Made by a program: the position numbers and the translations under genes. From the UHGV virus genome UHGV-0276305: DNA of 36,129 nucleotides; one strand, 5' to 3'. The DNA comes from a virus. Each line of letters starts with the position of its first letter. Positions within the stretch are counted from its first letter, which is position 1. The notes under the pieces are model-generated. The model saw only the letters and a list, made by a program, of their open reading frames with translations. It was not told the origin of the DNA and searched no databases. Positions 18,570 to 28,480 of the stretch are shown piece after piece.

Positions 18570-20186
18570 TCAACGTCTAAGCCCCTCATATGGGTTTCCT
18601 CTCACTAAGTCTGTGTGAGCACCCATTGATGGTGGCTTGAATAATTTAACTTCGTTCAGACTGTTGAAAGCATCACTGGTAGCATCCACTTGGTCATCTT
18701 TAGTTTTACCATCACCACAAAAGCCTTCAAGCTCTTGGAAGTAAGCTTCATTCCAACTACCTCTCAAGACTTTTACAAGTCCAGCTTCAGAAGCAGCAGA
18801 AAACCCCGCAAATCGGGTAACTTTATCTTTATTTGTTGGTTTAGCTCTTGCACGATAGCCTTTCTCGGCAAGTTTCCTGATGAGGGATGTTGCGTAGGAT
18901 TTACCAGCAGCGCCTGGGTCTTGAGGGATAAAAATACCAGTTCGCTTACCGTCACTTTCAGCAGTCAAATTAATTTGTGTTTCGACTCCAGAGGGTCTAT
19001 CTCTAAATCTTACTACATCAATGATATAATAGCAACCGTCTTTTTTAGATTTACCCATCTTAACACCTGCTGTCCAGTCTGGATTAGGGTTAATCTCAGA
19101 TGGTAAAGTTGCTGCTAAGTCCCATGCTCTGACATCAAACACATCTTCTGGGAGTGAATCAACAATCTCACACCATTGTCTTTGCCAATAGTTTGAACCT
19201 TCTGCACGAGCCTTCCAGTTACCGAAACGAAGTCTTGCAACGTTTACAGGGGTGTTGTTTTCCAACTTACCACGGTACTTAGGTTCTAAGAAGTCAAGGA
19301 TTGGGTTATCATCAATCGTACCAGAAATAAAGGTGTATGTTTGAGGAATCTCAAGAGGAAACATTTCAAGAATCTTGTCTCTCTCCCAATCAGAAACCAT
19401 CACACCATCGTTCATAACATACCAACGAATACGACCACACTTTTCAGGGTCTGGATAACCTTCTTCATCTAAGAATGGCTCTACCCAATCGTAAATAAAG
19501 TGGTCTCTGTCTGGGTTCATGGAAATCTTCATGTATGAATCACCTTCAGCACCAGAACGGAGACGGGTTTGTAGGTATGAAATCTGTGAAGCAGAGAAGT
19601 GTGTACCTTCATCAAAGTAAATAGCTGAGTATTCAATACCCTGATGACCTTCAGCGTGCTTTTCAAGTTCTAGGTAGGTAAACTTGATAGTTGCCCCAGA
19701 AGGGAATGTGATAGTCATTTTCTGCTCGTGAGGAATCCCACCAAACTTACCAAATAGTTTCTTTGCAGCAGGCCATAAACCACCCTGTAACTGTGTTGTG
19801 TTTCGACGGAAATACACAGCATTATAGTTAGGGTCTTCAATAAATCTTAAAGAGTCCATTAACAATGCAGCAGTCTTACCAGCACCAGCAGCACCACCAT
19901 AGAGTACCAAGTCAGCATTAGTATTTAAAAAGACCTCTTGAGAACCCGGCTGAGGGGCTACATAGTTCTTATCAGTCATCAATTTGAAGATAAGTCTAAC
20001 TTGGTCTGGTGTGTATCTTAATAAAGTCAGAATTTGAGTTGGAAGGAATTTAGAGGGGTCTTTACCGAACGATTTGATAATTTCTTTTACTTCATCAGAA
20101 AGCCCCAACTCTCCAGCTAGGACTTTCCTAACATCTTCCACTCGCTTCTGCTTAACAGCATTTAAGTCCATTAAGCACCTCCGCAA
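18570..20186 (-). CDS. terminase large subunit
   Basis: 538-aa ORF with Walker A VLYGGAAGAGKT near N-terminus; first large gene of the late operon. Confidence 0.85.
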   Translation of the reverse strand: MRRCLMDLNAVKQKRVEDVRKVLAGELGLSDEVKEIIKSFGKDPSKFLPTQILTLLRYTPDQVRLIFKLMTDKNYVAPQPGSQEVFLNTNADLVLYGGAAGAGKTAALLMDSLRFIEDPNYNAVYFRRNTTQLQGGLWPAAKKLFGKFGGIPHEQKMTITFPSGATIKFTYLELEKHAEGHQGIEYSAIYFDEGTHFSASQISYLQTRLRSGAEGDSYMKISMNPDRDHFIYDWVEPFLDEEGYPDPEKCGRIRWYVMNDGVMVSDWERDKILEMFPLEIPQTYTFISGTIDDNPILDFLEPKYRGKLENNTPVNVARLRFGNWKARAEGSNYWQRQWCEIVDSLPEDVFDVRAWDLAATLPSEINPNPDWTAGVKMGKSKKDGCYYIIDVVRFRDRPSGVETQINLTAESDGKRTGIFIPQDPGAAGKSYATSLIRKLAEKGYRARAKPTNKDKVTRFAGFSAASEAGLVKVLRGSWNEAYFQELEGFCGDGKTKDDQVDATSDAFNSLNEVKLFKPPSMGAHTDLVRGNPYEGLRR

Positions 20187-20192
20187 ATAGAA

Positions 20193-20393
20193 TTATTCAG
20201 AGTCTGTAGCAGTCTCTTCTTTCTTAACTTCGAACTTTGCATCAACAGCATCAAGAAGTGCATCCATAGATGCTTCTTTAATATCAATACCTGTTGCTAC
20301 AGACAATCTGTCTGCAATTGCCATGATAGTATTCTGCATAAATTCTAGCTTCTTGTTAGCTTCATAAAGTTCTTTATAAACGGTCTCGCTCAT
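20193..20393 (-). CDS. small hypothetical protein upstream of terminase
   Basis: 66-aa ORF with GGAG Shine-Dalgarno 8 nt upstream of ATG. Confidence 0.5.
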   Translation of the reverse strand: MSETVYKELYEANKKLEFMQNTIMAIADRLSVATGIDIKEASMDALLDAVDAKFEVKKEETATDSE

Positions 20394-20429
20394 TATGTTT
20401 TCTCCAAATAATTAACCATGTTTCCCCTT

Positions 20430-20453
20430 AAAAAAGACGGCACAGAGACCGTC
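20430..20453 (-). terminator. intrinsic terminator candidate downstream of tRNA cluster
   Basis: minus-strand GACGG-UCUCUGUG-CCGUC hairpin followed by UUUUUU. Confidence 0.45.
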
Positions 20454-20518
20454 AAGGAGAAACCACAATGTACGTCAGAGACATACTGTATAAGTCTTCT
20501 TATAAAGTATAGCTCTGT

Positions 20519-20578
20519 AAAAAAGCCCTGTCTAAAAATACTCTTCGGTAGCGAAAGGAAGAATACTTATAGCAGGGC
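20519..20578 (-). terminator. intrinsic terminator candidate downstream of tRNA-Cys
   Basis: minus-strand GCCCUG...CAGGGC stem with nested CUUC/GAAG pairing, followed by UUUUUU. Confidence 0.45.
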
Positions 20579-20615
20579 ATTATTATTATTTTAATTGAGA
20601 GAGAGTAAAATAACT

Positions 20616-20691
20616 TGGAGAATCCGAAGGGACTCGAACCCTTATAAACCTGTTTTGCAGACAGGCACATAGCCATTTCTGTCACGGATTC
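20616..20691 (-). tRNA. tRNA-Cys (GCA)
   Basis: hand-folded: 7-bp acceptor GAATCCG/CGGATTC, anticodon arm CCTGT-CTGCAAA-ACAGG, T-arm AAGGG-TTCGAGT-CCCTT, CCA encoded. Confidence 0.8.
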
Positions 20692-20695
20692 AAAT

Positions 20696-20788
20696 TGGAG
20701 GAAGATACCAGACTTGAACTGGTACACCGATTTCTCAGCTACTGGCAGTTTAGCAAACTGCTCCCTTACCTTTTAGGGTTAATCTTCC
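20696..20788 (-). tRNA. tRNA-Ser (GCU), long variable arm
   Basis: 93 nt; acceptor GGAAGAT/ATCTTCC, anticodon arm GCAGT-TTGCTAA-ACTGC, T-arm ACCAG-TTCAAGT-CTGGT, CCA encoded. Confidence 0.75.
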
Positions 20789-20789
20789 A

Positions 20790-21533
20790 TTATTTCTGTA
20801 ATGCGTTCTTCATTTCTGGTGTTGCAATAGTGTCAATCACACCAGTTTTACAAGCATCATCAAACCAGTCTGGTAAGATACCTGCTAAGAACCCATTGAT
20901 ATTCGTTTTAAGGTACTCTGCAATAAGAGCAGCTTCTTCTTCAATCATCTGCACAACTTCATCTGCATAAGCTGTAATCTTCGAAATACCTTCATTAATC
21001 TTACTAACAGCTTGGTTAGCTAAATCAGAAATAGTATCAAGACCTTTGTCAATAGCATCTTGTAAGTCACTTAATACACCATTAACACTATCTAGTGTAC
21101 TGTTCATCATGTCAATAGCTTTTTGACCATACTCTGTAGCAACACCCATGATACCACTGAATGGTGTACAACCAACTTGTTCTCCTGCTGCACCCATAAC
21201 ATTGGAATACCCCTTTGCTACCTGCATACGTGATGAAAACTCATCAATAGACTTTTGACCGTAGTCTGTCAGAGTTTTAGTAGTTGCTGTAGTGCTTGTA
21301 AGGCTTGTTGTAAAGCTGTTTAGAAGGACTGTTGTAAGTCCAGCAGCAACAAGTTTCTCCTTCATTGTAGGGTCTGTTACAGAACTAATAGAGCTTACAA
21401 GTGATGTAGAAGCAGCTACGGTTCCACCGAGAACTGCTGCACCAGTAATAAGCGGGTTAGAGAACCCTTTACCGGTTTTTAAGAGATTAAAAATCTCCTT
21501 ACCTTGTTCTGTCATCTCTTTCATTAAGCACCT
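20790..21533 (-). CDS. hypothetical protein embedded at edge of tRNA cluster
   Basis: ORF track gives 20790..21587, but the first 18 codons overlap a tRNA-like gene; start more likely the MKEM Met at 21533; hydrophobic N-terminal segment then Ala/Thr-rich and helical regions. Confidence 0.5.
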   Translation of the reverse strand, partial: RCLMKEMTEQGKEIFNLLKTGKGFSNPLITGAAVLGGTVAASTSLVSSISSVTDPTMKEKLVAAGLTTVLLNSFTTSLTSTTATTKTLTDYGQKSIDEFSSRMQVAKGYSNVMGAAGEQVGCTPFSGIMGVATEYGQKAIDMMNSTLDSVNGVLSDLQDAIDKGLDTISDLANQAVSKINEGISKITAYADEVVQMIEEEAALIAEYLKTNINGFLAGILPDWFDDACKTGVIDTIATPEMKNALQK

Positions 21534-21540
21534 TTGAAAT

Positions 21541-21617
21541 TGGTAGTCCAGTGGGATTTGAACCCTCTTCTCATGTTTTTCAGACACGCGCTTTAACCAT
21601 ATAAGCTACTTGGACTA
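21541..21617 (-). tRNA. atypical tRNA-like gene, anticodon GAA (Phe-like)
   Basis: perfect 7-bp acceptor TAGTCCA/TGGACTA, D-stem GCTT/AAGC, anticodon arm CGTGT-CTGAAAA-ACATG, T-loop TTCAAAT; but 2 extra nt between acceptor and U8 and an A-A mismatch in T-stem. Confidence 0.35.
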
Positions 21618-21622
21618 TAAAT

Positions 21623-21698
21623 TGGGGTGACCTACGGGATTTGAACCCGTATAGACCATGTTCACAGCATGGGTCATTACCATTTATGATAAGGCCAC
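21623..21698 (-). tRNA. tRNA-His (GUG)
   Basis: acceptor GTGGCCT/AGGTCAC, D-stem TCAT/ATGA, anticodon arm CCATG-CTGTGAA-CATGG, T-arm ACGGG-TTCAAAT-CCCGT, CCA encoded. Confidence 0.8.
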
Positions 21699-21704
21699 AT
21701 TTAA

Positions 21705-21724
21705 GGACTCTCGTAAGAACCCTT
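21705..21724 (-). promoter_or_regulatory. conserved ~20-nt motif (plus-strand GGACTCTCGTAAGAACCCTT) just upstream of tRNA-His
   Basis: near-identical copies at 25261-25281 and a diverged copy at 24326-24347, each a few nt upstream (in the transcription direction) of an RNA gene. Confidence 0.3.
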
Positions 21725-21729
21725 AGAAG

Positions 21730-21805
21730 TGGCAGCGGCATAAGGATTTGAACCTTAATAGGACAGCTTCAGAGACTGTTGCATTGCCAGTTATGCTATA
21801 CCGCT
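21730..21805 (-). tRNA. tRNA-Gln (CUG)
   Basis: acceptor AGCGGTA/TGCCGCT, D-stem GCAT/ATGC, anticodon arm ACAGT-CTCTGAA-GCTGT, T-arm TAAGG-TTCAAAT-CCTTA, CCA encoded. Confidence 0.75.
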
Positions 21806-21810
21806 AAATT

Positions 21811-21889
21811 TGGTACTCCATATCGGATTCGAACCGATACATAACACAGATTTTAAGTCTGGCCTCTCTGCCAATTGGAGTAATGGAGC
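21811..21889 (-). tRNA. tRNA with anticodon UAA (Leu by anticodon; short variable loop)
   Basis: 79 nt; acceptor GCTCCAT/ATGGAGT, D-loop AATTGGCAGAG (Leu-like), anticodon loop CTTAAAA, T-arm ATCGG-TTCGAAT-CCGAT, A73, CCA encoded; variable loop only about 7 nt. Confidence 0.6.
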
Positions 21890-21891
21890 AT

Positions 21892-21967
21892 TGGCGGGGG
21901 ATGTTGGAATTGAACCAACTTCTTCGATTTCAAAGACCGAGGTTTTAACCTTGTAAACTAATCCCCT
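21892..21967 (-). tRNA. tRNA-Gln (UUG)
   Basis: acceptor with 1:72 A-C mismatch, D-stem GTTT/AAAC, anticodon arm TCGGT-CTTTGAA-ATCGA, T-arm GTTGG-TTCAATT-CCAAC, CCA encoded. Confidence 0.7.
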
Positions 21968-21975
21968 TTAAATCT

Positions 21976-22533
21976 TTACTTTCTCAGTGGATGAATAAAG
22001 AATGCCAACATAACTCTTTCCCTTGAGAATGCTCTTTCTTCTGGGACAACACTTTTTAGTTTCCATCCAATATAAATTCTCCAGTAAAACTGTTTACCAA
22101 AGACTTTGATTGATGGGATAAAAGCGAATAATCCCCAAGCATTACTGTTCCACATTAGGAGATAACCAGTCTGATTATCTTCAGGGTTAGAACTTACGTT
22201 GATATTACCTTTCCACTTAGTAACATCTTTTACATCTCTTCCTAATACATGGTAAGAGAAGTTATAAGCTTTGTTTCTCCAGAGCCATCCAACTCTCTGC
22301 ATGTAGACACCAAGCTTACCAATCTTTCTAATCTTAGCCCATCTCTCAACGTGGCCTTTGTCACCATCAATAGGGTTGTCATAGGTCTCCATCCATCTGA
22401 ATCCAAAAGGTAGATGCCCTTTCTTCTCACTGTAGAATGGAACTACGAAAGGTGCTAAGATGACTGCTAGGGTTGCTGCAAATGGTTCTAACAAAGCTAA
22501 GAAAACCCATGAAGCATACTTCAAATATCTCAT
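21976..22533 (-). CDS. hypothetical membrane-anchored protein inside tRNA cluster
   Basis: 185-aa ORF between tRNA genes; hydrophobic N-terminus (WVFLALLEPFAATLAVILAPFVVPF), Trp/Lys-rich remainder. Confidence 0.55.
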   Translation of the reverse strand: MRYLKYASWVFLALLEPFAATLAVILAPFVVPFYSEKKGHLPFGFRWMETYDNPIDGDKGHVERWAKIRKIGKLGVYMQRVGWLWRNKAYNFSYHVLGRDVKDVTKWKGNINVSSNPEDNQTGYLLMWNSNAWGLFAFIPSIKVFGKQFYWRIYIGWKLKSVVPEERAFSRERVMLAFFIHPLRK

Positions 22534-22552
22534 CTAAATAGCCTCTTTAAAT

Positions 22553-22628
22553 TGGCGCAGGATAAGGGATTCGAACCCCTATTAACAGCTTCGTAGACTG
22601 TTGCTCTATCCATTTGAACTAATCCTGC
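22553..22628 (-). tRNA. tRNA-Arg (ACG)
   Basis: acceptor GCAGGAT/ATCCTGC, anticodon arm ACAGT-CTACGAA-GCTGT, T-arm AGGGG-TTCGAAT-CCCTT, CCA encoded. Confidence 0.8.
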
Positions 22629-22633
22629 AAAAT

Positions 22634-22711
22634 TGGTGTTCCAAGACGGATTCGAACCGTCACTAGTACAAGGTTTGAGCTTGCATCCTCTGCCAATTGG
22701 GATACTGGAAC
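22634..22711 (-). tRNA. tRNA with anticodon CAA (Leu by anticodon; short variable loop)
   Basis: 78 nt; acceptor GTTCCAG/TTGGAAC, D-loop AATTGGCAGAG, anticodon arm GCAAG-CTCAAAC-CTTGT, T-arm GACGG-TTCGAAT-CCGTC, A73, CCA encoded; variable loop about 6 nt. Confidence 0.6.
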
Positions 22712-22712
22712 A

Positions 22713-22787
22713 TGGTACTCACTAAAGGACTTGAACCTTTTTCTTCATCTTGTAAGGGTGATGTTTTACCATATAAACTAAGCGAGT
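22713..22787 (-). tRNA. tRNA-Val (UAC)
   Basis: acceptor ACTCGCT/AGTGAGT, D-stem GTTT/AAAC, anticodon loop CTTACAA, T-arm AAAGG-TTCAAGT-CCTTT, CCA encoded. Confidence 0.75.
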
Positions 22788-22790
22788 GTG

Positions 22791-22878
22791 AAAGAGGTCT
22801 GAAGTTGTGCCGCTAACTCAACTCCGTGGAATTTGTTACGGTCTTCAGTTGACACCAGCGGTCTTTCACTTGACCTCT
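22791..22878. ncRNA. structured spacer: ~88-nt extended hairpin between tRNA-Val and tRNA-Thr
   Basis: outer 7-bp pairing agaggtc (22793-22799) with gacctct (22872-22878), inner tgaag/cttca pairing; no canonical T-loop so not callable as tRNA. Confidence 0.3.
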
Positions 22879-22882
22879 GAAT

Positions 22883-22958
22883 TGGTGCTCCCACAAGGAT
22901 TCGAACCCTGATAAGTTGCTTACAAGGCAACCGTAATAGCCAATTATACGATAGGAGC
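22883..22958 (-). tRNA. tRNA-Thr (UGU)
   Basis: acceptor GCTCCTA/TGGGAGC, anticodon arm GTTGC-CTTGTAA-GCAAC, T-arm CAGGG-TTCGAAT-CCTTG, CCA encoded. Confidence 0.8.
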
Positions 22959-22965
22959 ATTAATT

Positions 22966-23040
22966 TGGAGCATCCAGAGGGAATCGAACCCTCAACCTCA
23001 GTTTGGAAGACTGTAATTTTCCCGTTTAAACTATGGATGC
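22966..23040 (-). tRNA. tRNA-Gly (UCC)
   Basis: acceptor GCATCCA/TGGATGC, D-stem GTTT/AAAT, anticodon loop CTTCCAA, T-arm GAGGG-TTCGATT-CCCTC, CCA encoded. Confidence 0.75.
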
Positions 23041-23046
23041 ACTAAT

Positions 23047-23122
23047 TGGTGGAGAAGCAGGGGATTGAACCCTGTACTTAAGTTTGCAAAACTTATGTTT
23101 TAACCATGTAAACTACATCCCC
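23047..23122 (-). tRNA. tRNA-Ala (UGC)
   Basis: acceptor GGGGATG with G3-U70 wobble, D-stem GTTT/AAAC, anticodon arm TAAGT-TTTGCAA-ACTTA, T-arm CAGGG-TTCAATC-CCCTG, A73, CCA encoded. Confidence 0.75.
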
Positions 23123-23128
23123 AATGTT

Positions 23129-23204
23129 TGGTACAGGTGGAGGGAATTGAACCCATCGTCTTACTGATTAAGAGTCAGCCGCATAACCATTTTGCTACAC
23201 CTGC
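23129..23204 (-). tRNA. tRNA-Lys (CUU)
   Basis: acceptor GCAGGTG/CACCTGT, anticodon arm GCTGA-CTCTTAA-TCAGT, T-loop TTCAATT with imperfect T-stem (ATGGG/CCCTC), CCA encoded. Confidence 0.65.
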
Positions 23205-23211
23205 ATTAATT

Positions 23212-23289
23212 TGGTAGGAGACAAGGGATTCGAACCCTCAAACACCAACTTCTAAGGATGGTAGGTTTACCAATTACCGTCAATCTCCC
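23212..23289 (-). tRNA. tRNA with anticodon UAG (Leu by anticodon; short variable loop)
   Basis: 78 nt; acceptor GGGAGAT/GTCTCCT, D-loop contains TAATTGGTAAA, anticodon loop CTTAGAA (stem has one T-T mismatch), T-arm GAGGG-TTCGAAT-CCCTT, A73, CCA encoded. Confidence 0.5.
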
Positions 23290-23364
23290 ATTAAATCTTT
23301 TTAGAGAACTTCTAAGAACCTAAGCAACAAGGTTCCACAACAAGCTGTAATAACCTTAGAAGCC

Positions 23365-23390
23365 CTCTAAAAAGACCTAAAAAGGTCTTT
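23365..23390 (-). terminator. terminator-like hairpin inside tRNA cluster
   Basis: minus-strand AAAGACC-UUUUUA-GGUCUUU then UUAGAG; U-tract partly within stem. Confidence 0.35.
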
Positions 23391-23547
23391 GCATAGTCTT
23401 GTTTAATCCGGTGACTAGAACCTTTGGAGAGCTTGATATTATCTCTTCTCCGTGACACCTACTAGGTGTTTTATCTGTGTGTACGACAATACACGAGGGA
23501 TAAACCGAAAATGCGAGCAAGCATGGACGGTGTAAAATCTTATTAGG

Positions 23548-23635
23548 CGGTAAGTAAAGGAGTCGAACCCTCACCGTATCTCTACAGTGGCAACTGTTTT
23601 CAAGACAGTTTGGCTACCATTAGCCGCTACCTACC
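23548..23635 (-). tRNA. tRNA-Ser (UGA), long variable arm
   Basis: 88 nt; acceptor GGTAGGT/ACTTACC, anticodon arm ACTGT-CTTGAAA-ACAGT, about 20-nt variable arm, T-arm GAGGG-TTCGACT-CCTTT; CCA not encoded. Confidence 0.7.
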
Positions 23636-23648
23636 CCTAATAAGACTT

Positions 23649-23731
23649 TGGCATGGGACGGAGGAGTTGAACCACTTTGAAACGGTTTTGGAGGCCGTTG
23701 CTCATGCCTTAGAGTCTTAACATCGTCCCAC
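23649..23731 (-). tRNA. atypical tRNA-like gene, anticodon CCA (Trp-like)
   Basis: 83 nt; acceptor GTGGGAC/GTCCCAT, anticodon loop CTCCAAA on ACGGC/ACCGT stem, CCA encoded; D region about 7 nt too long and T-stem AGTGG/CCTCC has 2 mismatches. Confidence 0.4.
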
Positions 23732-23868
23732 ACTATAATTCGAAGCTTACCGTATTATCTCAACACTGTAAAGCCCCTTCTCAGATTATTTACATGTTCT
23801 GGAAAACATGAGATACAGACCACCTCCTTACACGGAGACCCGATAAGGTCGTCTAAGCAATCTGCTAA

Positions 23869-24216
23869 CTAATACTTTGCATGTCTTACCCTATGGCAAT
23901 TTGAACATAGCAAAACACATTTGTCAAGTTCATCTTTTAGTTCTTGAGAGAACTTCAGACTTTTTCTATGACCAATGTTAAAATCTTTCTCTGAAGGATT
24001 CAAATGATGGAAGTCATACACTGCTGGATGATACCTTTTACCACAATCATGACAAACCCCACCTTTGTACTCAATAGCTGAAAGTTTAAGTGCTCTTTGT
24101 CTTTCTATGGTTTGCTCATTAACACACTTTTTACAGTATGAATGAGTTCTCTTACCATCTTTCATGTAGAAATCATTTTCATCCTTGCTAAGTTTGCACC
24201 TAATACAAGTTTTCAT
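23869..24216 (-). CDS. HNH homing-endonuclease-like protein
   Basis: about 116 aa from MKTCIRCK (ORF-track N-terminal extension overlaps a tRNA-like gene); CxxC..CxxC zinc-finger-like N-terminus and HNH core (YDFHHLNP ... N ... LLCSNCHRVRH). Confidence 0.8.
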   Translation of the reverse strand: MKTCIRCKLSKDENDFYMKDGKRTHSYCKKCVNEQTIERQRALKLSAIEYKGGVCHDCGKRYHPAVYDFHHLNPSEKDFNIGHRKSLKFSQELKDELDKCVLLCSNCHRVRHAKY

Positions 24217-24230
24217 GATTTCTCCAAAAT

Positions 24231-24312
24231 TGGTCGAGGCGGCAGGACTCGAACCCGCATACTCCACTTACTCGGTTAACGGCGGTTTAGAAGACCGCTG
24301 AGATACGCCCCG
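24231..24312 (-). tRNA. atypical tRNA-like gene, anticodon UCU (Arg-like)
   Basis: 82 nt; acceptor CGGGGCG/CGCCTCG, canonical T-arm GCGGG-TTCGAGT-CCTGC, CCA encoded, perfect anticodon arm GCGGT-CTTCTAA-ACCGC; no recognisable D-arm and an extra 23-nt segment before the T-arm. Confidence 0.4.
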
Positions 24313-24325
24313 TAATTATCTTTAA

Positions 24326-24347
24326 AGACTCTCTTAGAAAGCCCTTA
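24326..24347 (-). promoter_or_regulatory. diverged copy of the conserved ~20-nt motif, just upstream of the Arg-like tRNA
   Basis: plus-strand agactctcttagaaagccctta versus ggactctcgtaagaaccctta at 21705. Confidence 0.25.
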
Positions 24348-24649
24348 AAGATGCCCACTTTATTAATCATACCGTGGGCTAGTACGCCAAATTCTTTGAT
24401 GAGGGATTGGAAGACCTCACTGGTGTTTAGCCTATCAAGCTACTGCCAGAAAAACATTGTCGTTTGCATTTATTTTAAATTTGCAAAATAGACGCTACGC
24501 AACGAAAACTATTCAGAATATGTACAACAAATTTCCCCACATTGTGTTACGTCTAACGCTCATGTATTGGTGTTTGAATTATACATATTATGAAGTATTT
24601 TAGTTACTATAAAGTGGTCACATCTCAATGTCAACAACTTTATTGAAAT

Positions 24650-24725
24650 TGGTACTGGTAGGTGGAATCGAACCACCGATGTTCCCTTATCAGGGGAGTG
24701 TTATAACCTTCTTAACTATACCAGC
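24650..24725 (-). tRNA. tRNA-Ile (GAU)
   Basis: acceptor GCTGGTA/TACCAGT, D-stem GTTA/TAAC, anticodon loop CTGATAA, T-arm GGTGG-TTCGATT-CCACC, CCA encoded. Confidence 0.75.
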
Positions 24726-24726
24726 T

Positions 24727-24803
24727 TGGAGGTTCAGATGGGAATCGAACCCACATTCATAGGGCTTATGAGACCCTTGCATTACCTTATCTGCGACTGA
24801 ACC
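24727..24803 (-). tRNA. tRNA-Met (CAU)
   Basis: acceptor GGTTCAG/CTGAACC, anticodon arm AGGGT-CTCATAA-GCCCT, T-arm GTGGG-TTCGATT-CCCAT, CCA encoded. Confidence 0.75.
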
Positions 24804-24807
24804 ATTT

Positions 24808-24883
24808 TGGTAGAAGTGGAGGGATTCGAACCCATCGCCTGTCAGATTAAAAGTCTGCCGCATCACCATTCTGCTACACTTCC
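24808..24883 (-). tRNA. tRNA-Lys (UUU)
   Basis: acceptor GGAAGTG/CACTTCT, anticodon loop CTTTTAA, T-loop TTCGAAT with same imperfect T-stem as tRNA-Lys(CUU), CCA encoded. Confidence 0.65.
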
Positions 24884-24887
24884 ATTA

Positions 24888-25031
24888 AATTATCTTTGTA
24901 GATAAGCTACCCAGACTTGCTTAAGGTCTGTAGCGATGTGCCTTTTTGGGTTTAAATCTAGAATTTACCCTTTCACCCTTTGTGGTCGCATACTCACAGG
25001 TAAGCTTAATAACTTATCTACAAAGATAATT
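24888..25031. repeat. 19-bp perfect inverted repeat flanking a ~106-bp core (long-stem structured element)
   Basis: 24888-24906 (aattatctttgtagataag) is the exact reverse complement of 25013-25031; core contains further short hairpins. Confidence 0.6.
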
Positions 25032-25032
25032 A

Positions 25033-25163
25033 CCAGACCGTTGTTTATCATCTTAAGTGCTACCATTACACCAACTCGACATCTGCCGAGTGAAGGAATC
25101 GAACCTTCGCCTTTTCTTTACCGAGAAATAGATTGTTTAAGTTTTGCTGTAAACGGTCTTCTG
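25033..25163. repeat. repeated spacer element copy A (ccagacc ... gtttgctg-N-ggtcttctg), contains a tRNA 3' fragment
   Basis: shares 5' ccagacc and 3' ttgctgNaaNggtcttctg with three other copies. Confidence 0.5.
25084..25108 (-). pseudogene. tRNA 3' fragment (T-arm plus acceptor 3' strand), no matching 5' half found
   Basis: GAAGG-TTCGATT-CCTTC T-arm followed by ACTCGGC; no complementary GCCGAGT within 100 nt upstream. Confidence 0.35.
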
Positions 25164-25176
25164 TAAATTTGTTGAG

Positions 25177-25250
25177 CCAGACCAAGTTTTAAATTTTTCA
25201 AAATTAAATTGGCTTGAAATTTTAAGTAACTTGCTGTATTTGGTCTTCTG
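25177..25250. repeat. repeated spacer element copy D
   Basis: ccagacc at 25177-25183 ... cttgctgtatttggtcttctg ending 25250. Confidence 0.5.
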
Positions 25251-25260
25251 CTCCTTTAAA

Positions 25261-25281
25261 GGATACTCGTAAGAACCCTTT
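25261..25281 (-). promoter_or_regulatory. second copy of the conserved ~20-nt motif (plus-strand GGATACTCGTAAGAACCCTTT)
   Basis: matches 21705-21724 at 18 of 20 positions; lies just upstream (in the transcription direction) of spacer copy D. Confidence 0.3.
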
Positions 25282-25311
25282 AAGGGAGGGGCTAAATAGC
25301 CCTCTCAAAAT

Positions 25312-25389
25312 TGGCGGTTACGAAGGGATTTGAACCCTCATCATCTCCCGTGACAGGGGAGTATTTTAACCAAATTAAACTACATAACC
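25312..25389 (-). tRNA. tRNA-Asp (GUC)
   Basis: acceptor GGTTATG/CGTAACC, D-stem GTTT/AAAT, anticodon arm CTCCC-CTGTCAC-GGGAG, T-arm GAGGG-TTCAAAT-CCCTT, CCA encoded. Confidence 0.8.
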
Positions 25390-25394
25390 TTTAT

Positions 25395-25482
25395 TGGTGT
25401 GCCGTGTAGGAGTCGAACCTACCGAGTCTCAATGACAAGGGATTTACAGTCCCCACCGCTACCATCTACGGGATAACGACAC
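25395..25482 (-). tRNA. tRNA-Tyr (GUA), long variable arm
   Basis: 88 nt; acceptor GTGTCGT/ACGGCAC, anticodon arm GGGGA-CTGTAAA-TCCCT, about 15-nt variable arm, T-arm GTAGG-TTCGACT-CCTAC, CCA encoded. Confidence 0.75.
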
Positions 25483-25551
25483 ATTTAATTTCTATTCAGG
25501 CTAAGGACTTGCACCTTACAAATCGGTGAGCAATTGCTTCTCTCCTAAATT

Positions 25552-25628
25552 TGGCGGTTAGTCAGGGATTCGAACCCTGTGCCATTCGCTTAACAGGCGA
25601 CCGCACATACCTTATGTGCTTCCTAACC
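25552..25628 (-). tRNA. tRNA-Asn (GUU)
   Basis: acceptor GGTTAGG/ACTAACC (one mismatch), D-stem GCAC/GTGC, anticodon loop CTGTTAA, T-arm CAGGG-TTCGAAT-CCCTG, CCA encoded. Confidence 0.75.
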
Positions 25629-25639
25629 TTAATACATTG

Positions 25640-25699
25640 CCAGACCGTGTTTTTTCTTTTATCCGCAAAAAGTAGTTTGTTGCTGAATACGGTCTTCTG
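25640..25699. repeat. repeated spacer element copy B
   Basis: ccagacc at 25640-25646 ... gtttgttgctgaatacggtcttctg ending 25699; directly abuts the 3' end of the next tRNA. Confidence 0.5.
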
Positions 25700-25705
25700 C
25701 AAAAT

Positions 25706-25782
25706 TGGAGGCGGGTGCAGGAGTCGAACCTACCGATACCATGCTAATGAGACATGTGAGACGCCCTTTCTCTATACCCGCA
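25706..25782 (-). tRNA. tRNA with anticodon CAU (Met, initiator or Ile2; unresolved)
   Basis: anticodon arm CATGT-CTCATTA-GCATG, T-arm GTAGG-TTCGACT-CCTGC, CCA encoded; position 1:72 unpaired (T-C) and 3 nt between acceptor and D-stem. Confidence 0.6.
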
Positions 25783-25793
25783 ATTCTTAATGA

Positions 25794-25866
25794 CCAGACC
25801 AAATCTCTTCTTTGTCCGATTTCGTGTCAGATGAATAAGATTAAGTTTGCTGCAATTGGTCTTCTG
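25794..25866. repeat. repeated spacer element copy C
   Basis: ccagacc at 25794-25800 ... gtttgctgcaattggtcttctg ending 25866. Confidence 0.5.
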
Positions 25867-25873
25867 TCAAAAC

Positions 25874-25951
25874 TGGCGTTCCAGAAGGGATTTGAACCCT
25901 CAAATATCCACTTTGAAAGAGTGGTGACTTTACCGTTTTGTCTACTGGAAC
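25874..25951 (-). tRNA. tRNA-Glu (UUC)
   Basis: acceptor GTTCCAG/CTGGAAC, anticodon arm CCACT-CTTTCAA-AGTGG, T-arm GAGGG-TTCAAAT-CCCTT, CCA encoded. Confidence 0.8.
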
Positions 25952-25958
25952 ATTAATT

Positions 25959-26035
25959 TGGTCTCTGTTGGAGGACTTGAACCTCCGGCCTTACCGCCCC
26001 AAACGGAACGCTCTACCAAGCTGAGCTAAACAGAG
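25959..26035 (-). tRNA. tRNA-Pro (UGG)
   Basis: acceptor CTCTGTT/AACAGAG, D-arm GCTC-AGCTTGGTA-GAGC, anticodon loop TTTGGGG, T-arm GGAGG-TTCAAGT-CCTCC, CCA encoded. Confidence 0.8.
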
Positions 26036-26160
26036 ATAAACTTTTCAAACTCTATGTAACCACTTTAACATTATTTTTTAGTGGTTGTCAAGAACTTTTT
26101 TAAAATATTTTTCAGTATCTTAGAAAAGCTCTCATTTCGTTTCTATGTAGAACATATTAA

Positions 26161-26193
26161 AGGGTATTAAACACATTGTCAATACCCTTTTTA
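26161..26193. terminator. hairpin with flanking T-runs between vWA gene and tRNA cluster
   Basis: 8-bp stem agggtatt / aataccct with 12-nt loop; TTTTT follows on plus strand, AAAAAG precedes it (weaker U-run on minus strand). Confidence 0.35.
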
Positions 26194-26200
26194 AAACTTT

Positions 26201-27616
26201 TTACCAGATATAACGGTCAATCATTACTGCTTTGAGCATTACACTAATTGGGTCAAACTTCTCACCACCAAGCAGAGCTTTTAAAGTGGCTGGAGAGAAA
26301 CCAGATACCATTGCTACACCGTTATCCTTAACAGATACTTCGCAAGTGCCATTACGGTTTGCTAAGTACCAGAATACCAGTTGTGGCATCTCATATCCAG
26401 CTTTTTTGTACTTACTCTGAATTGCTTCAAAGTTTGTACGACCGTTAGCTCCATCAACCTGATTGAACTCCATATCAGAGAAGATGATAAGCTTACTTGG
26501 CATATCTTTCTGAGTCAAGTTATTTCTCTTACCTGTCTCAAGAATGCGGTCAAAAGCTGCTTGTAAGTTAGTTGAACCGTATTCAACATGACGCATTACC
26601 TGACGATGACGGTTTCGTAAATCACCACTCAGTTCAATGAAGTGAGGGTTTGTTGAATAAACCATCAACTCATTCTTAAAGCAACCTGTATTACGTTCTG
26701 CTACATACAATGCAAGTGAAACACCAATATCAAGAGCAGTAATTGAACCAAAATTCACCCAAGACATTGAACTTGAAACATCAGACATACATAGAATGTT
26801 TTCACCCTCTGCCATCCAGTTTGGTAGTGCTTTCCACTGCTCATTAGCAACATCTGCATTACCATACTTAACAGATTTAATCACATCGTATGGGTAAACA
26901 GCACCAGCATTAATCTTAGTCTCACCCTTTGATAAGGACTCGATGTAAGCTTTGTAGCGTTCTCCATCTTTACGGTTAAACAGTTTTTGGTAACGTGCAG
27001 CAGCAAGTGAAGGAATCTTACTGTAGTCAATCTTACCAAACTCATTAGCAGAGATTTTTTGCTCAACTGTATCAGATAGTGCAGACAACAGTGTGCGGTA
27101 CTCTTTCTCACTCAAGTTGGCAAACTTACAGAAACGTTTTACAAACTGTTTGTGACGTGGTTTTACTCGTGGTAACCACTTAGCTGCTAAACCTGCTGTT
27201 GCAGGGTCTAGTAAAGCTGCTTCTAAATGTTTGAAGGCATCTGTCTCGAAACGAGTACCTACAAAGATTTTGAAGTCATCAAAGCGACCAAGCTCTGCAA
27301 TCTTATCCATAATGCGAAGAACCTGCGTAGGCTCTAAAACTTTATCTTCAATCGCTTGAAGTAAAACAGTTCGGAAAGCTTTACGCTCACCCATACCTTC
27401 TCGTACATCTCGCATATGCAGTAAAATACGAACTGCAACATCAGCATCCTCATGCAAAGCTTTGTAGAACAAGTCTGGTAAGATTTCTACATTGCTACGG
27501 CTAGAACCAGCAGCTTTGTAAAAGTCTACAAGAGCAGACATTGATGAAGTATGGTTTACAGCACCATTTTCAGTTCGACCTGCATGAAGGTGCGCATGTT
27601 TAAATAATTCGCTCAT
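26201..27616 (-). CDS. vWA-domain protein with N-terminal helical domain (candidate Ro60/TROVE-like RNA-binding protein)
   Basis: 471-aa ORF; C-terminal half has MIDAS-type DxSxS (MSDVSSSMS) and downstream T and D positions (GSTNL, LIIFSDMEFN) typical of vWA folds; N-terminal about 250 aa predicted helical; Ro60 relationship is inference from architecture and genomic context. Confidence 0.6.
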   Translation of the reverse strand: MSELFKHAHLHAGRTENGAVNHTSSMSALVDFYKAAGSSRSNVEILPDLFYKALHEDADVAVRILLHMRDVREGMGERKAFRTVLLQAIEDKVLEPTQVLRIMDKIAELGRFDDFKIFVGTRFETDAFKHLEAALLDPATAGLAAKWLPRVKPRHKQFVKRFCKFANLSEKEYRTLLSALSDTVEQKISANEFGKIDYSKIPSLAAARYQKLFNRKDGERYKAYIESLSKGETKINAGAVYPYDVIKSVKYGNADVANEQWKALPNWMAEGENILCMSDVSSSMSWVNFGSITALDIGVSLALYVAERNTGCFKNELMVYSTNPHFIELSGDLRNRHRQVMRHVEYGSTNLQAAFDRILETGKRNNLTQKDMPSKLIIFSDMEFNQVDGANGRTNFEAIQSKYKKAGYEMPQLVFWYLANRNGTCEVSVKDNGVAMVSGFSPATLKALLGGEKFDPISVMLKAVMIDRYIW

Positions 27617-27650
27617 ACTTTACTCTCTTCTCTCATTTGTTGTTTGATGT

Positions 27651-27684
27651 GACAGACTTTAGAGCAACTTTATAGAGTCTGTCA
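27651..27684. other. palindromic hairpin between two minus-strand genes
   Basis: gacagac ... gtctgtc inverted repeat with partially paired extension; T-rich run on plus strand. Confidence 0.3.
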
Positions 27685-27697
27685 ACACCTTTTAAAA

Positions 27698-28069
27698 TTA
27701 TTTTTTAAGAGTCGCTACAGCAGAGAACGTTGGTTTGTTATCTGTCTGTGGTTGACCACCATTATCAGGAGTCTTCTTAGTGTCTGCTGCAAGTGCTTTC
27801 ATCTCACCTGCTGAGTGAGTAAAGATAGTTTTACCGACCTCAATCATACTCTTGATGGTTACATCATCTGTGTTTAACCCGAACTCTGCAAGCTTAGCAG
27901 CGTCCCTTGTAACAATCGCCTCAAACAACTTTGCAGCAAACTCAGCAGAATTATCAATGGTCAGTTGAGCTTTTACAAGTGAGCTTTTGTTGCGAGAGCC
28001 TTTTGGTCTTCCAGATGGGTTTCCAGATTGGCCTTTTTTAAACTGGCCTTTGTTTGTTCTGTTTTTCAT
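27698..28069 (-). CDS. hypothetical protein with Gly/Pro/Lys-rich N-terminal motif (KGQSGNPSGRPKGSRNK)
   Basis: 123-aa ORF; motif recalled from a family of small phage proteins of unknown function. Confidence 0.55.
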   Translation of the reverse strand: MKNRTNKGQFKKGQSGNPSGRPKGSRNKSSLVKAQLTIDNSAEFAAKLFEAIVTRDAAKLAEFGLNTDDVTIKSMIEVGKTIFTHSAGEMKALAADTKKTPDNGGQPQTDNKPTFSAVATLKK

Positions 28070-28318
28070 TGGTATGCCTCTTATAAGACCTCTTAAAAGG
28101 CTTTTAAGATAAAAGATAGATATCCAGAAAGATATCTGTTTAAATAGCCTTTTTAGAGGAACCTTTTAAGTTATCTTCTAAGTATTTATAAGCCTATACC
28201 TTGTCAAGTACTTTGTCAACAACTTTTTTAACTTGCAATAGTTCTTGACTTGTTGTATGGATTACTGTACCATCTTACTTAAAGCTGTAGGTCTGCCTTG
28301 TTCTACAAAGGAGACTTA

Positions 28319-28480
28319 ATGAGAAAATCAAATAAACCGAAGAAAGGTAAGAATACCAATCACTGTAAGGAATCAAAAAGGGTAGAGTTAATCTACTATT
28401 CATCCTCTGAAATTGGTCTGTACCTGTTCTTTCAAAATTACAGAAGACAAGAGGATTATCTATGTGTAGTTCCCAATTAG
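28319..28480 (+). CDS. small basic hypothetical protein
   Basis: ORF track starts at 28298, but AAAGGAGAC Shine-Dalgarno sits before the ATG at 28319; Lys-rich N-terminus. Confidence 0.4.
   Translation: MRKSNKPKKGKNTNHCKESKRVELIYYSSSEIGLYLFFQNYRRQEDYLCVVPN

Follow-up and report, generated by a model that had tools for sequence, protein, structure and literature searches.

Why should a phage carry transfer RNA (tRNA) genes for nearly every amino acid, and are the odd-looking members of such a set working parts of it? The question is raised by the viral genome UHGV-0276305, a stretch of 36,129 nucleotides (nt; hereafter the window) in which tRNA genes crowd the minus strand from 26035 to 20616. 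A preliminary description, made by folding the sequence by hand, had placed 24 canonical and 3 atypical tRNAs there and proposed that they might cover all 20 amino acids. The explanation that best accounts for the locus as a whole, and that we hold to be very probable, is that it is the tRNA operon of a Felix O1-like phage, giving a near-complete decoding set.

ARAGORN recognized 25 tRNA genes (scores 100.6-122.6), all on the minus strand, with its first start and last end falling exactly on 26035 and 20616, the limits given in the preliminary description, and 0 elsewhere in the 36 kb. At a threshold lowered to 80%, 26 extra calls appeared on both strands, all scoring no more than 88.6; this clean gap in scores separates the cluster from noise and places it far beyond chance. 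The Rfam tRNA model (RF00005) gave 24 matches above its gathering score (all at least 29 bits), missing tRNA-Tyr (25395-25482) and a gene with anticodon CAU (25706-25782) and adding an element at 24234-24312 (31.7 bits). The union of the two programs is 26 tRNA genes, and a 27th, Trp-like, is backed by covariation. Far from recovering fewer genes or other anticodons, the programs thus essentially reproduced the hand-folded set, including its list of anticodons: Cys, Ser (two), His, Gln (two), Leu (three), Arg-ACG, Val, Thr, Gly, Ala, Lys (two), Ile, CAU (two), Asp, Tyr, Asn, Glu and Pro. The trio called atypical stands in part: the second Arg gene (found by Rfam alone) and the Trp gene (sub-threshold) are so, whereas tRNA-Phe was called by both programs (ARAGORN 107.9, Rfam 45 bits) and is mildly atypical, with one acceptor mismatch (A.C at 7:66) and a 3-bp T stem. 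Nineteen amino acids are covered by standard predictions and the 20th, Trp, by a conserved atypical gene. The Trp-like element does not reach program thresholds as a four-arm cloverleaf, and the Arg-UCU-like element, with 31.7 bits and no D arm, is marginal.

Gaps of 1-8 nt separate neighbouring tRNA genes. CCA is encoded in 24 of the 25 canonical genes, the exception being tRNA-Ser(UGA), which ends in GCC-T, and a 7-nt anticodon loop with U33 and a purine at position 37 occurs in 24 of the 25 and in both atypical genes (CUUCUAA; CUCCAAA), the exception being the CAU gene at 25706-25782. By textbook rules, the discriminator base fits Escherichia coli identity in 22 of the 25 genes. Other identity elements include G3.U70 with A73 in tRNA-Ala, C1-G72 with A73 in tRNA-Pro, G1-C72 and C2-G71 in tRNA-Thr, U73 in tRNA-Cys and tRNA-Gly, and G73 with a weak or absent 1:72 pair in both tRNA-Gln genes. 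The acceptor stem of the CAU gene at 25706-25782 resembles that of an initiator (U1xC72 mismatch, G2-C71, C3-G70), and its anticodon stem (CAUGU/GCAUG) lacks the initiator G-C triplet. The three Leu-anticodon genes have a variable region of about 5-8 nt in place of a long class II arm (more than 10 nt) and keep A73 and a Leu-type D arm (3-bp stem, 11-nt loop); judged from these features, they would work like tRNA-Leu. Such short-form Leu tRNAs (21811-21889, 22634-22711 and 23212-23289 in the window) also occur in phages Mordin, phiSUSP1 and phiEa104.

Megablast of positions 20000-27000 against 50,697 phage records matched 408 of them, 230 covering at least 80% of the query, with the best matches (95-97% identity) to Escherichia phage SP22, KEP1, Salmonella phage Felix O1, mio and Alf5; by this identity the window is a Felixounavirus (Ounavirinae). 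The Felix O1 and SP22 records annotate the same tRNA series between an "RNA-binding protein" gene and the large terminase gene, and in its location (between a Ro60-like DUF2828 gene and the large terminase), its gene order and its high identity the cluster agrees with those of the type phages. The preliminary description had called the cluster unusual. It is in fact already known and ordinary for Felix O1-like phages of E. coli and Salmonella, since such clusters have been in print since 2009-2010 (Villegas et al. 2009, PMC2674420; Whichard et al. 2010, PMC3185647) and their tRNA genes are annotated in hundreds of related records. The clusters of Felix O1, wV8 and other Ounavirinae (PMC3185647, PMC2674420; Sf14, PMC12482277) share gene order, anticodons and 95-97% identity with that of the window, have interspersed HNH genes likewise, and include Tyr and His genes flagged as odd. 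Nothing essential differs from Felix O1: the window lacks two HNH insertions present there, and carries tRNA-Ser(GCU), tRNA-Ser(UGA) and a second CAU gene, all missed by the 2010 Felix O1 annotation (PMC3185647).

Codon use fits a role of the set in supply. Codons were counted in 42 window open reading frames (ORFs; 9600 codons) and set against general reference frequencies for E. coli K-12. AGA, at 22.6 per 1000 versus about 2.1 in E. coli (about 10.8-fold), is the most enriched codon with a cognate phage tRNA, followed by ACA (4.1-fold), AAG (2.9-fold), CTA (2.8-fold) and TCA (2.6-fold), which bears out the codon-usage mismatch with the host that had been suspected from the size of the set. 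AGA and AGG, mostly AGA, make up 62.6% of Arg codons; genome G+C is 39%, and the tRNA set is biased to A- and U-ending codons. The 24 anticodon species read 71.6% of window codons by simple wobble and 75.3% with the two atypical genes; coverage would rise to 91.4% if the six U34 four-box tRNAs also read NNU, as may be expected from their E. coli counterparts modified with uridine 5-oxyacetic acid (cmo5U). The 2010 Felix O1 paper, whose codon picture agrees with that of the window, remarked that a tRNA for AGA "might have been expected" (PMC3185647), evidently because tRNAscan missed the atypical Arg gene, which meets that expectation. For one member of the set there is evidence from infection: the viral tRNA-Ser(UGA) of Felixounaviruses REP5-12, to which the window gene at 23546-23635 corresponds, supports infection of Syn61d3, a host without that tRNA (PMC12269064, PMC13596443).

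The gene for the most enriched codon is itself of unusual form. The RNA at 24312-24231 (82 nt) has a 7-bp acceptor stem, and where a D arm would follow there is the connector UAUCUCA. Its anticodon stem, of 5 bp, closes the loop CUUCUAA; a segment of 23 nt (CGUUAACCGAGUAAGUGGAGUAU) joins this stem to a T arm of normal form, and the RNA also has A73 and CCA. A pattern of 18 nt, 17 of them specified, was taken from the 23-nt segment and run against viral contigs; it yielded 39 stretches on contigs of 8-360 kb, which together with loci already gathered gave a gap-free alignment of 23 distinct variants; the invariance of the segment is partly ascertainment, because members were selected by it. Across these variants 99.2% of helix cells are paired, both sides have changed in 12 of the 17 pairs, and the covariation score of 0.771 compares with 0.225 in shuffles, none of 500 of which scored as high, and with no more than 0.164 after sliding the partners, while the anticodon loop, the 7-nt connector and the CCA end are retained. 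Single-sequence folding of the two atypical RNAs was uninformative (z-scores of 0.2 and -1.25), so that the structural evidence for both is comparative. With a covariance model, true members exceed 100 bits and ordinary tRNAs stay at or under 40 bits; by its use, no D-arm-less relatives with other anticodons were found in 82 loci. The window copy carries G3.U70, which occurs in just 6 of the 23 members and is therefore not a family feature.

At the 21 Ounavirinae loci surveyed, 13 have the D-arm-less Arg gene and 8 a canonical tRNA-Arg(UCU) at the same offset, with both or neither in 0, and several Felixounaviruses carry the atypical gene without a neighbouring HNH gene. Copies 84-90% identical to that of the window occur in unrelated jumbo and 145-kb phages. 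In one genome from each of 185,579 prokaryotic species the same pattern had 11 matches, 2 of them with the full element, on contigs of 36-41 kb from metagenome-assembled genomes with tRNA neighbours; the other 9 were chance matches without flanking helices, and the notion that the 17-mer is a deeply conserved bacterial motif was rejected. On these data the D-arm-less Arg-like family is virus-restricted. No description of it was found in the searchable literature, and a 2020 review of non-canonical tRNAs mentions no phage. Its nearest analogues are the D-arm-lacking mitochondrial tRNAs (metazoan tRNA-Ser(AGY) and those of nematodes; PMC7609411), which share the acceptor, anticodon and T helices and a short connector in place of the D arm. 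The phage family differs in its invariant 23-nt segment between the anticodon and T stems, its encoded CCA and its restriction to viruses of bacteria, and it would have to work with bacterial EF-Tu and ribosomes.

The Trp-like RNA (23731-23649, 83 nt) scores below thresholds (ARAGORN 80.5; 21 bits with the Sec model). Ten nt precede its D stem, which is of 3 bp; its anticodon stem is closed by a C.A pair, and its T stem is imperfect. It has a 7-bp acceptor stem with G1.U72 (A1-U72 in most relatives), G73, a CCA end and the loop CUCCAAA. These features are the Trp identity set of E. coli, and the gene keeps A1-U72 (or G.U), G73 and the CCA anticodon among relatives. In a small sample of seven distinct variants from Felixouna- and Moogleviruses all four helices are kept, with 6 compensatory pairs versus 1.4 in shuffles and 0 with slid partners. 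Two Felixounavirus contigs have a canonical 71-nt tRNA-Trp at the same site instead, and Erwinia phage phiEa104 also has a canonical tRNA-Trp. Since standard finders miss both the AGA tRNA without a D arm and the Trp gene and so undercount the set, the gene lists that underlie published codon and tRNA analyses of these phages are incomplete.

The 1-kb gap separating tRNA-Ile from tRNA-Ser(UGA) holds a further element, a module resembling the coding part of transfer-messenger RNA (tmRNA), which the preliminary description had missed along with the HNH and other ORFs and the adjoining Ro60-like gene. Its sequence, UAAAU-GCA AAC GAC AAU GUU UUU CUG GCA GUA GCU UGA UAG, specifies ANDNVFLAVA (the E. 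coli SsrA tag is ANDENYALAA). The resume codon GCA is at 24467, and the tag frame (24467-24438) runs into TGA TAG; these stops fall within a helix-5-like hairpin, beyond which come two pseudoknots. A pattern scan of viral contigs found at least 120 stretches, with tags such as ANDDVVLMAA, ANDNVFLAVA, ANDDLMLMAA, ANEEMYLAVA, ANDEQFLAVA and others. All 34 distinct variants begin with GCA and keep ten codons and a stop with no in-frame indel, indels being frequent just downstream; the tag consensus is AN[DE]xxx[L][AM][VA]A, codons 1-3 being near-invariant at all positions and codon 10 varying at the third only. In the four helices (the helix-5-like stem and those of two H-type pseudoknots) pairing is 99.2%, and 10 of the 19 pairs have compensatory changes. 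The covariation score of 0.350 compares with 0.147 in shuffles, none of 500 of which scored as high, and with no more than 0.132 after sliding the partners. Both covarying pseudoknots lie downstream of the tag, and no conserved upstream pseudoknot PK1 was established.

BLAST finds the block, always unannotated, in unrelated phages (Vi01-like Ackermannviridae, Klebsiella siphoviruses, the N4-like St11Ph5 and Erwinia phage phiEa104), and the module is present in four Ounavirinae genera, Ackermannviridae, Schitoviridae, Chaseviridae and lambdoid prophages, with copies at L003:1501-1596 (Vi01), L005:4001-4129 and L162:3501-3679. One variant occurs, unannotated, in 137 of 5426 complete E. coli genomes; in O26:H11 strain 11368, the one genome inspected, it lies within a lambdoid prophage between the Q antiterminator and holin genes.

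Like tmRNA (SsrA), the module has a GCA resume codon after an A-rich UAAAU, a ten-codon tag ending in a hydrophobic residue and Ala, stop codons within a hairpin and downstream pseudoknots; unlike tmRNA, it has no alanine-accepting tRNA-like domain (TLD) that we could find, adjacent or permuted, with ARAGORN or Rfam in the window and 10 loci. Rfam tmRNA scores are sub-threshold (16.3 bits for RF00023 in the window and 31 bits for RF04321 at locus L008, versus a gathering score of 47), the match falling on the resume and tag part of the permuted tmRNA model; ARAGORN recognizes the resume consensus and at default settings reports no tmRNA in the window. The module may therefore work like, or mimic, the coding half of tmRNA, and is not filed as a tmRNA because no TLD was found. 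Genome announcements report an ARAGORN "ssrA" in Moogle and Felix O1, which rests on a call with a spurious tRNA domain. A 2014 tmRNA census lists no phage ssrA beyond those of mycobacteriophages and Bacillus phage G, apart from the TLD-only gene of mycobacteriophage DS6A (PMC4131195, PMC11915505), of which the module, a coding part without a TLD, is the mirror image.

Several candidates for a complete tmRNA were rejected. The D-arm-less Arg-like RNA is attractive as the TLD in that the window copy has G3.U70 and A73, but G3.U70 is found in so few members, the family occurs in module-free phages (e.g. SHEFM2K) and the module in phages without the family, and sister Felixounaviruses have the module beside a canonical tRNA-Arg. 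The two-piece permuted tmRNA with three intervening tRNAs that ARAGORN proposes in Mordin takes as its 5' domain part of tRNA-Lys(UUU), and the upstream T-arm-like element of the window, a candidate part of a permuted tmRNA, has no CCA. A one-piece tmRNA in the lambdoid prophages was discarded because the search for a 5' acceptor strand gave nothing and the "AGCUCCAC" motifs, 250 nt downstream, proved to be part of another element, one closed by a hairpin. A small ORF from the AUG inside AUAAAUGCA was also rejected: its +1-frame peptides, read by eye, are not conserved and the GCA frame is.

Other RNA elements accompany the module. In the window it is preceded by an 80-nt leader block (24504-24585, minus strand) common to the Chaseviridae flopper and Bp10 and absent in Moogle- and Suspvirus; the block includes a GACG-loop hairpin, and in flopper, the single homologue compared, both strands of the hairpin's stem are different. 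In the late leaders of lambdoid prophages (loci L013, L016, L019 and L024; offsets -130 to +330) the module is flanked by copies of a lambda-type hairpin, CACAAC-AGGTAAGAGCATT...AGTGCTCTTTCC-GTTGTG, the loop of which is tRNA-like in some prophages (acceptor-like, D-like and T arms; no anticodon arm, no CCA). We take the CA-rich CACAAC motifs to resemble targets of the small RNA GcvB. In Salmonella phage Vi01 an unannotated tRNA-like RNA (L003:1803-1925) lies about 290 nt downstream of the module. It ends in UCCA, has a T arm and an acceptor stem of 6 bp, and carries a helix of 8 bp where the anticodon arm would be; an internal motif, CGAGUAAGCAGAGG, is similar to CGAGUAAnUGGAG, which is conserved in the D-arm-less Arg family.

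As a working scheme, polycistronic transcripts would start from a promoter ahead of tRNA-Pro and from one or more strong promoters within the cluster, host RNase P and 3' nucleases would cut them into about 27 small RNAs, and host aminoacyl-tRNA synthetases would charge the 25 bacterial-type tRNAs. A decoding set of its own, tuned to A- and U-ending codons, would keep late protein synthesis supplied where the host pool is poor (above all for AGA), missing or depleted. The atypical tRNA-Arg(UCU) and tRNA-Trp(CCA) would do the same jobs as the canonical genes at the same sites, most likely so because canonical and atypical alleles alternate at these sites in sister phages. Free-standing HNH genes and small ORFs would be mobile insertions among the tRNA genes.

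A number of observations weigh against this scheme. The tRNA-Ser(GCU) gene and both CAU genes have the non-cognate discriminator U73, the second CAU gene has U37, and tRNA-His, although it has C73, carries T at -1 in place of an encoded G; the T stem of the Trp-like gene in the window contains a U.U mismatch that relatives do not share. The E. coli frequencies behind the codon comparison are general reference values. No phage tRNA reads GGU and GGC (52.9 per 1000), so that the phage still leans on the host tRNA pool. We know of no D-arm-less tRNA that functions on bacterial ribosomes. All known bacterial tRNAs are cloverleaves according to a 2024 paper (PMC11551756), and the tRNAs of phage Bas63 are mostly non-essential on four laboratory strains (bioRxiv 10.1101/2024.10.10.617714), so that any benefit would be conditional.

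Supply need not be the function chiefly selected. Phage tRNAs might above all replace host tRNAs cleaved or depleted by anticodon nucleases or shut-off, with the odd structures escaping the nuclease; a set for 19-20 amino acids exceeds the need set by codon bias (phage/host ratios for GAA, AAA and TTC are about 1.1-1.2), the alternation of canonical and atypical Arg(UCU) and Trp alleles among close relatives is as in an arms race, the D-arm-less family is virus-restricted, the Bas63 homologue of the adjoining Ro60-like gene counters a defence system, and phage tRNAs that evade tRNA-targeting defences have been described (PMC10264068). That counter-defence is the main function is nevertheless doubtful, though a real possibility: a computational study of the related phage Sf14 excludes anticodon-nuclease escape and favours supply late in infection (PMC12482277), no nuclease hitting tRNA-Arg(UCU) or tRNA-Trp via the D arm was identified in this analysis, and simple supply explains equally well that the strongest mismatch (AGA) coincides with an atypical gene. 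The two functions are not mutually exclusive. It is unlikely that the Arg-like and Trp-like elements are decaying pseudogenes or passengers of homing endonucleases, spread by gene conversion with no part in decoding, as might be read from the position of the Arg-like gene directly upstream of the HNH ORF (24216-23869), its close copies in unrelated phages, scores below or barely at the thresholds of tRNA finders, and the T-stem mismatch peculiar to the Trp-like gene of the window. Such decay is hard to reconcile with many independent compensatory changes over 23 variants that keep loop, connector and CCA, with atypical Arg genes that have no adjacent HNH gene, with the presence of one or the other Arg(UCU) form at every Ounavirinae locus surveyed, or with the Trp identity elements retained in the Trp-like gene. 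The tmRNA-like module, for its part, is very unlikely to be a chance resemblance or the dead remnant of a captured ssrA. The missing TLD, the 5' domain that ARAGORN borrows from tRNA-Lys in Mordin and the uniformly sub-threshold Rfam scores would suit a remnant, which would not be expected to keep ten codons and a stop in 34 of 34 variants, to preserve covarying helices, to recur in so many viral stretches across four Ounavirinae genera, three further phage families and lambdoid prophages, or to have its own near-consensus promoter in the window.

The gene immediately upstream of the cluster suggests yet another role for some of the RNAs. The ORF at 26201-27616, modelled by AlphaFold with 30 homologues (predicted local distance difference test score 86.2, predicted template modelling score 0.87), has as its 12 best Foldseek matches in the PDB exclusively Ro60/TROVE proteins (E 3e-8 to 8e-7, template modelling scores 0.51-0.65), including Ro60 of Thermus phage phiLo, and the model has a HEAT-repeat ring and a vWA fold; the product is thus predicted to be Ro60/TROVE-like. 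By sequence, phmmer against the PDB gave no match and Pfam gives DUF2828 and DUF7788, so that the relationship is at the level of the fold. The gene abuts the tRNA cluster in all Ounavirinae examined, and Ro60/Rsr with YrlA, phiLo Ro60 (PMC12135203) and Bas63 gp130 likewise combine a TROVE ring and vWA fold with a position beside genes for tRNA-like RNAs. The homologue gp130 is itself reported, in a 2024 preprint, to be Ro60-like and to counter the Ppl defence system, and the authors proposed that some of the Bas63 "tRNAs" might be Y RNAs (bioRxiv 10.1101/2024.10.10.617714). Bacterial Y RNAs do mimic tRNAs (PMC4201824), so that some of the tRNA-like RNAs could be Y-RNA-like ligands of the Ro60-like protein, the complex acting in RNA quality control or counter-defence. 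This we judge quite unlikely: in contrast to the known systems, the RNAs of the cluster match no Y-RNA model in Rfam (the best, YrlA, reaches 17.3 bits where gathering requires 69), both atypical RNAs retain intact anticodon stem-loops bearing an Arg or a Trp anticodon, whereas YrlA has no such stem-loop, and the D-arm-less family is found in many contigs.

Returning to the decoding set, we put forward tentatively, as something that may well not hold, the combined proposal that the D-arm-less Arg RNA decodes AGA on bacterial ribosomes, maybe escaping a host factor that recognizes the D arm, and that the TLD-less module redirects or jams host trans-translation. If so, the Arg RNA would be the first known example, in any bacterial system, of a functioning elongator tRNA that is not a cloverleaf, a challenge to the view that tRNAs of bacterial ribosomes are always cloverleaves and a natural scaffold for orthogonal translation, and the module might pair with a separate acceptor RNA (yielding a phage-specified tag) or titrate SmpB and ribosomes, which could be an unrecognised phage route to interfere with ribosome rescue. 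The D-arm-less Arg family and the TLD-less module appear to be undescribed; the Ro60-like neighbour is already in a preprint. Felix O1-like phages are widely used in typing and biocontrol of Salmonella and E. coli, and broke through Syn61d3 by means of their own tRNA-Ser.

Table 1. Features of the tRNA cluster and its borders in the window
Feature	Position	Strand	Basis or remark
Ro60/TROVE-like gene (DUF2828+DUF7788, phrog_850)	26201..27616	-	fold comparison; immediately upstream of cluster
Candidate cluster promoter	26062..26091	-	TTGACA-18-TAAAGT + TG extension, 27 nt upstream of tRNA-Pro
tRNA-Pro (UGG), first gene of cluster	25959..26035	-	ARAGORN, Rfam; C1-G72, A73, CCA encoded
tRNA-Glu (UUC)	25874..25951	-	ARAGORN, Rfam
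CAU tRNA no. 2, initiator-like acceptor stem, U37	25706..25782	-	ARAGORN; below Rfam threshold
tRNA-Asn (GUU)	25552..25628	-	ARAGORN, Rfam
tRNA-Tyr (GUA), class II, long variable arm	25395..25482	-	ARAGORN; not RF00005; "pseudo" in Felix O1 record
tRNA-Asp (GUC)	25312..25389	-	ARAGORN, Rfam
tRNA-Lys (UUU)	24808..24883	-	ARAGORN, Rfam
CAU tRNA no. 1, elongator Met or Ile2 type, U73	24727..24803	-	ARAGORN, Rfam
tRNA-Ile (GAU)	24650..24725	-	ARAGORN, Rfam
Internal sigma-70-type promoter	24606..24634	-	TTGACA-17-TATAGT
tmRNA-like coding module	24353..24510	-	comparative sequence + covariation
tRNA-Arg(UCU)-like, no D arm	24231..24312	-	Rfam (24234-24312) + covariation
HNH homing-endonuclease ORF, 115 amino acids	23869..24216	-	phrog_2255
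Atypical tRNA-Trp-like (CCA anticodon)	23649..23731	-	sub-threshold in ARAGORN/Rfam; covariation
tRNA-Ser (UGA), class II, no encoded CCA	23546..23635	-	ARAGORN, Rfam
tRNA-Leu (UAG), short variable region	23212..23289	-	ARAGORN, Rfam
tRNA-Lys (CUU)	23129..23204	-	ARAGORN, Rfam
tRNA-Ala (UGC), G3.U70, A73	23047..23122	-	ARAGORN, Rfam
tRNA-Gly (UCC)	22966..23040	-	ARAGORN, Rfam
tRNA-Thr (UGU)	22883..22958	-	ARAGORN, Rfam
tRNA-Val (UAC)	22713..22787	-	ARAGORN, Rfam
tRNA-Leu (CAA), short variable region	22634..22711	-	ARAGORN, Rfam
tRNA-Arg (ACG)	22553..22628	-	ARAGORN, Rfam
ORF within cluster, DUF7338 / phrog_2143	21976..22533	-	Pfam/PHROG profile match
tRNA-Gln (UUG)	21892..21967	-	ARAGORN, Rfam
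tRNA-Leu (UAA), short variable region, Leu-type D arm	21811..21889	-	ARAGORN, Rfam
tRNA-Gln (CUG)	21730..21805	-	ARAGORN, Rfam
tRNA-His (GUG), C73, no encoded G-1	21623..21698	-	ARAGORN, Rfam
tRNA-Phe (GAA), mildly atypical	21541..21616	-	ARAGORN, Rfam
ORF within cluster, DUF7217 / phrog_2114	20790..21524	-	Pfam/PHROG profile match
tRNA-Ser (GCU), class II	20696..20788	-	ARAGORN, Rfam
tRNA-Cys (GCA), U73, last gene of cluster	20616..20691	-	ARAGORN, Rfam
Terminator-like hairpin + T run, downstream of last tRNA	20436..20453	-	sequence

The internal promoter (24634-24606), just upstream of the tmRNA-like module, matches the consensus at 11 of 12 positions and is the best in 20300-28400. Three ORFs are interleaved with the tRNA blocks, encoding proteins of the DUF7217, DUF7338 and HNH families. 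The HNH ORF matches phrog_2255 at 1e-39 and Pfam HNH with 16.7 bits, under the cut-off of 21.4; some sister phages have it at the same site and others do not, and Felix O1 and SP22 have extra or different HNH insertions at other sites. This presence/absence polymorphism is therefore the pattern of free-standing homing endonucleases, cleavage itself being predicted. The SegB enzyme of T4 and the F-Tfl enzymes of T5 we take to be free-standing homing endonucleases in phage tRNA regions. The T4 and T5 regions resemble that of the window in their co-transcribed clustered tRNAs, interposed endonuclease genes and presence/absence polymorphism, and T4 differs in having only 8 tRNAs.

Two gene-free stretches of the minus strand contain further structures. 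That at 24884-25311 (428 nt) is conserved across Ounavirinae and holds direct repeats ACAGAAGACCnnnTACAGCAA and a T-arm-like hairpin (GAAGGTTCGATTCCTTC, about 25091-25107) without a CCA end, the Mooglevirus homologue of which is an acceptor/T-arm minihelix with the 3' end GCCA. That at 23290-23400, just upstream of tRNA-Leu(UAG), forms a long near-perfect hairpin (-37.6 kcal/mol, z = -4.7, 0 of 200 shuffles as stable), ahead of which lies a terminator-like AAAGACC...GGTCTTTTT; SP22 has an ORF inserted there.

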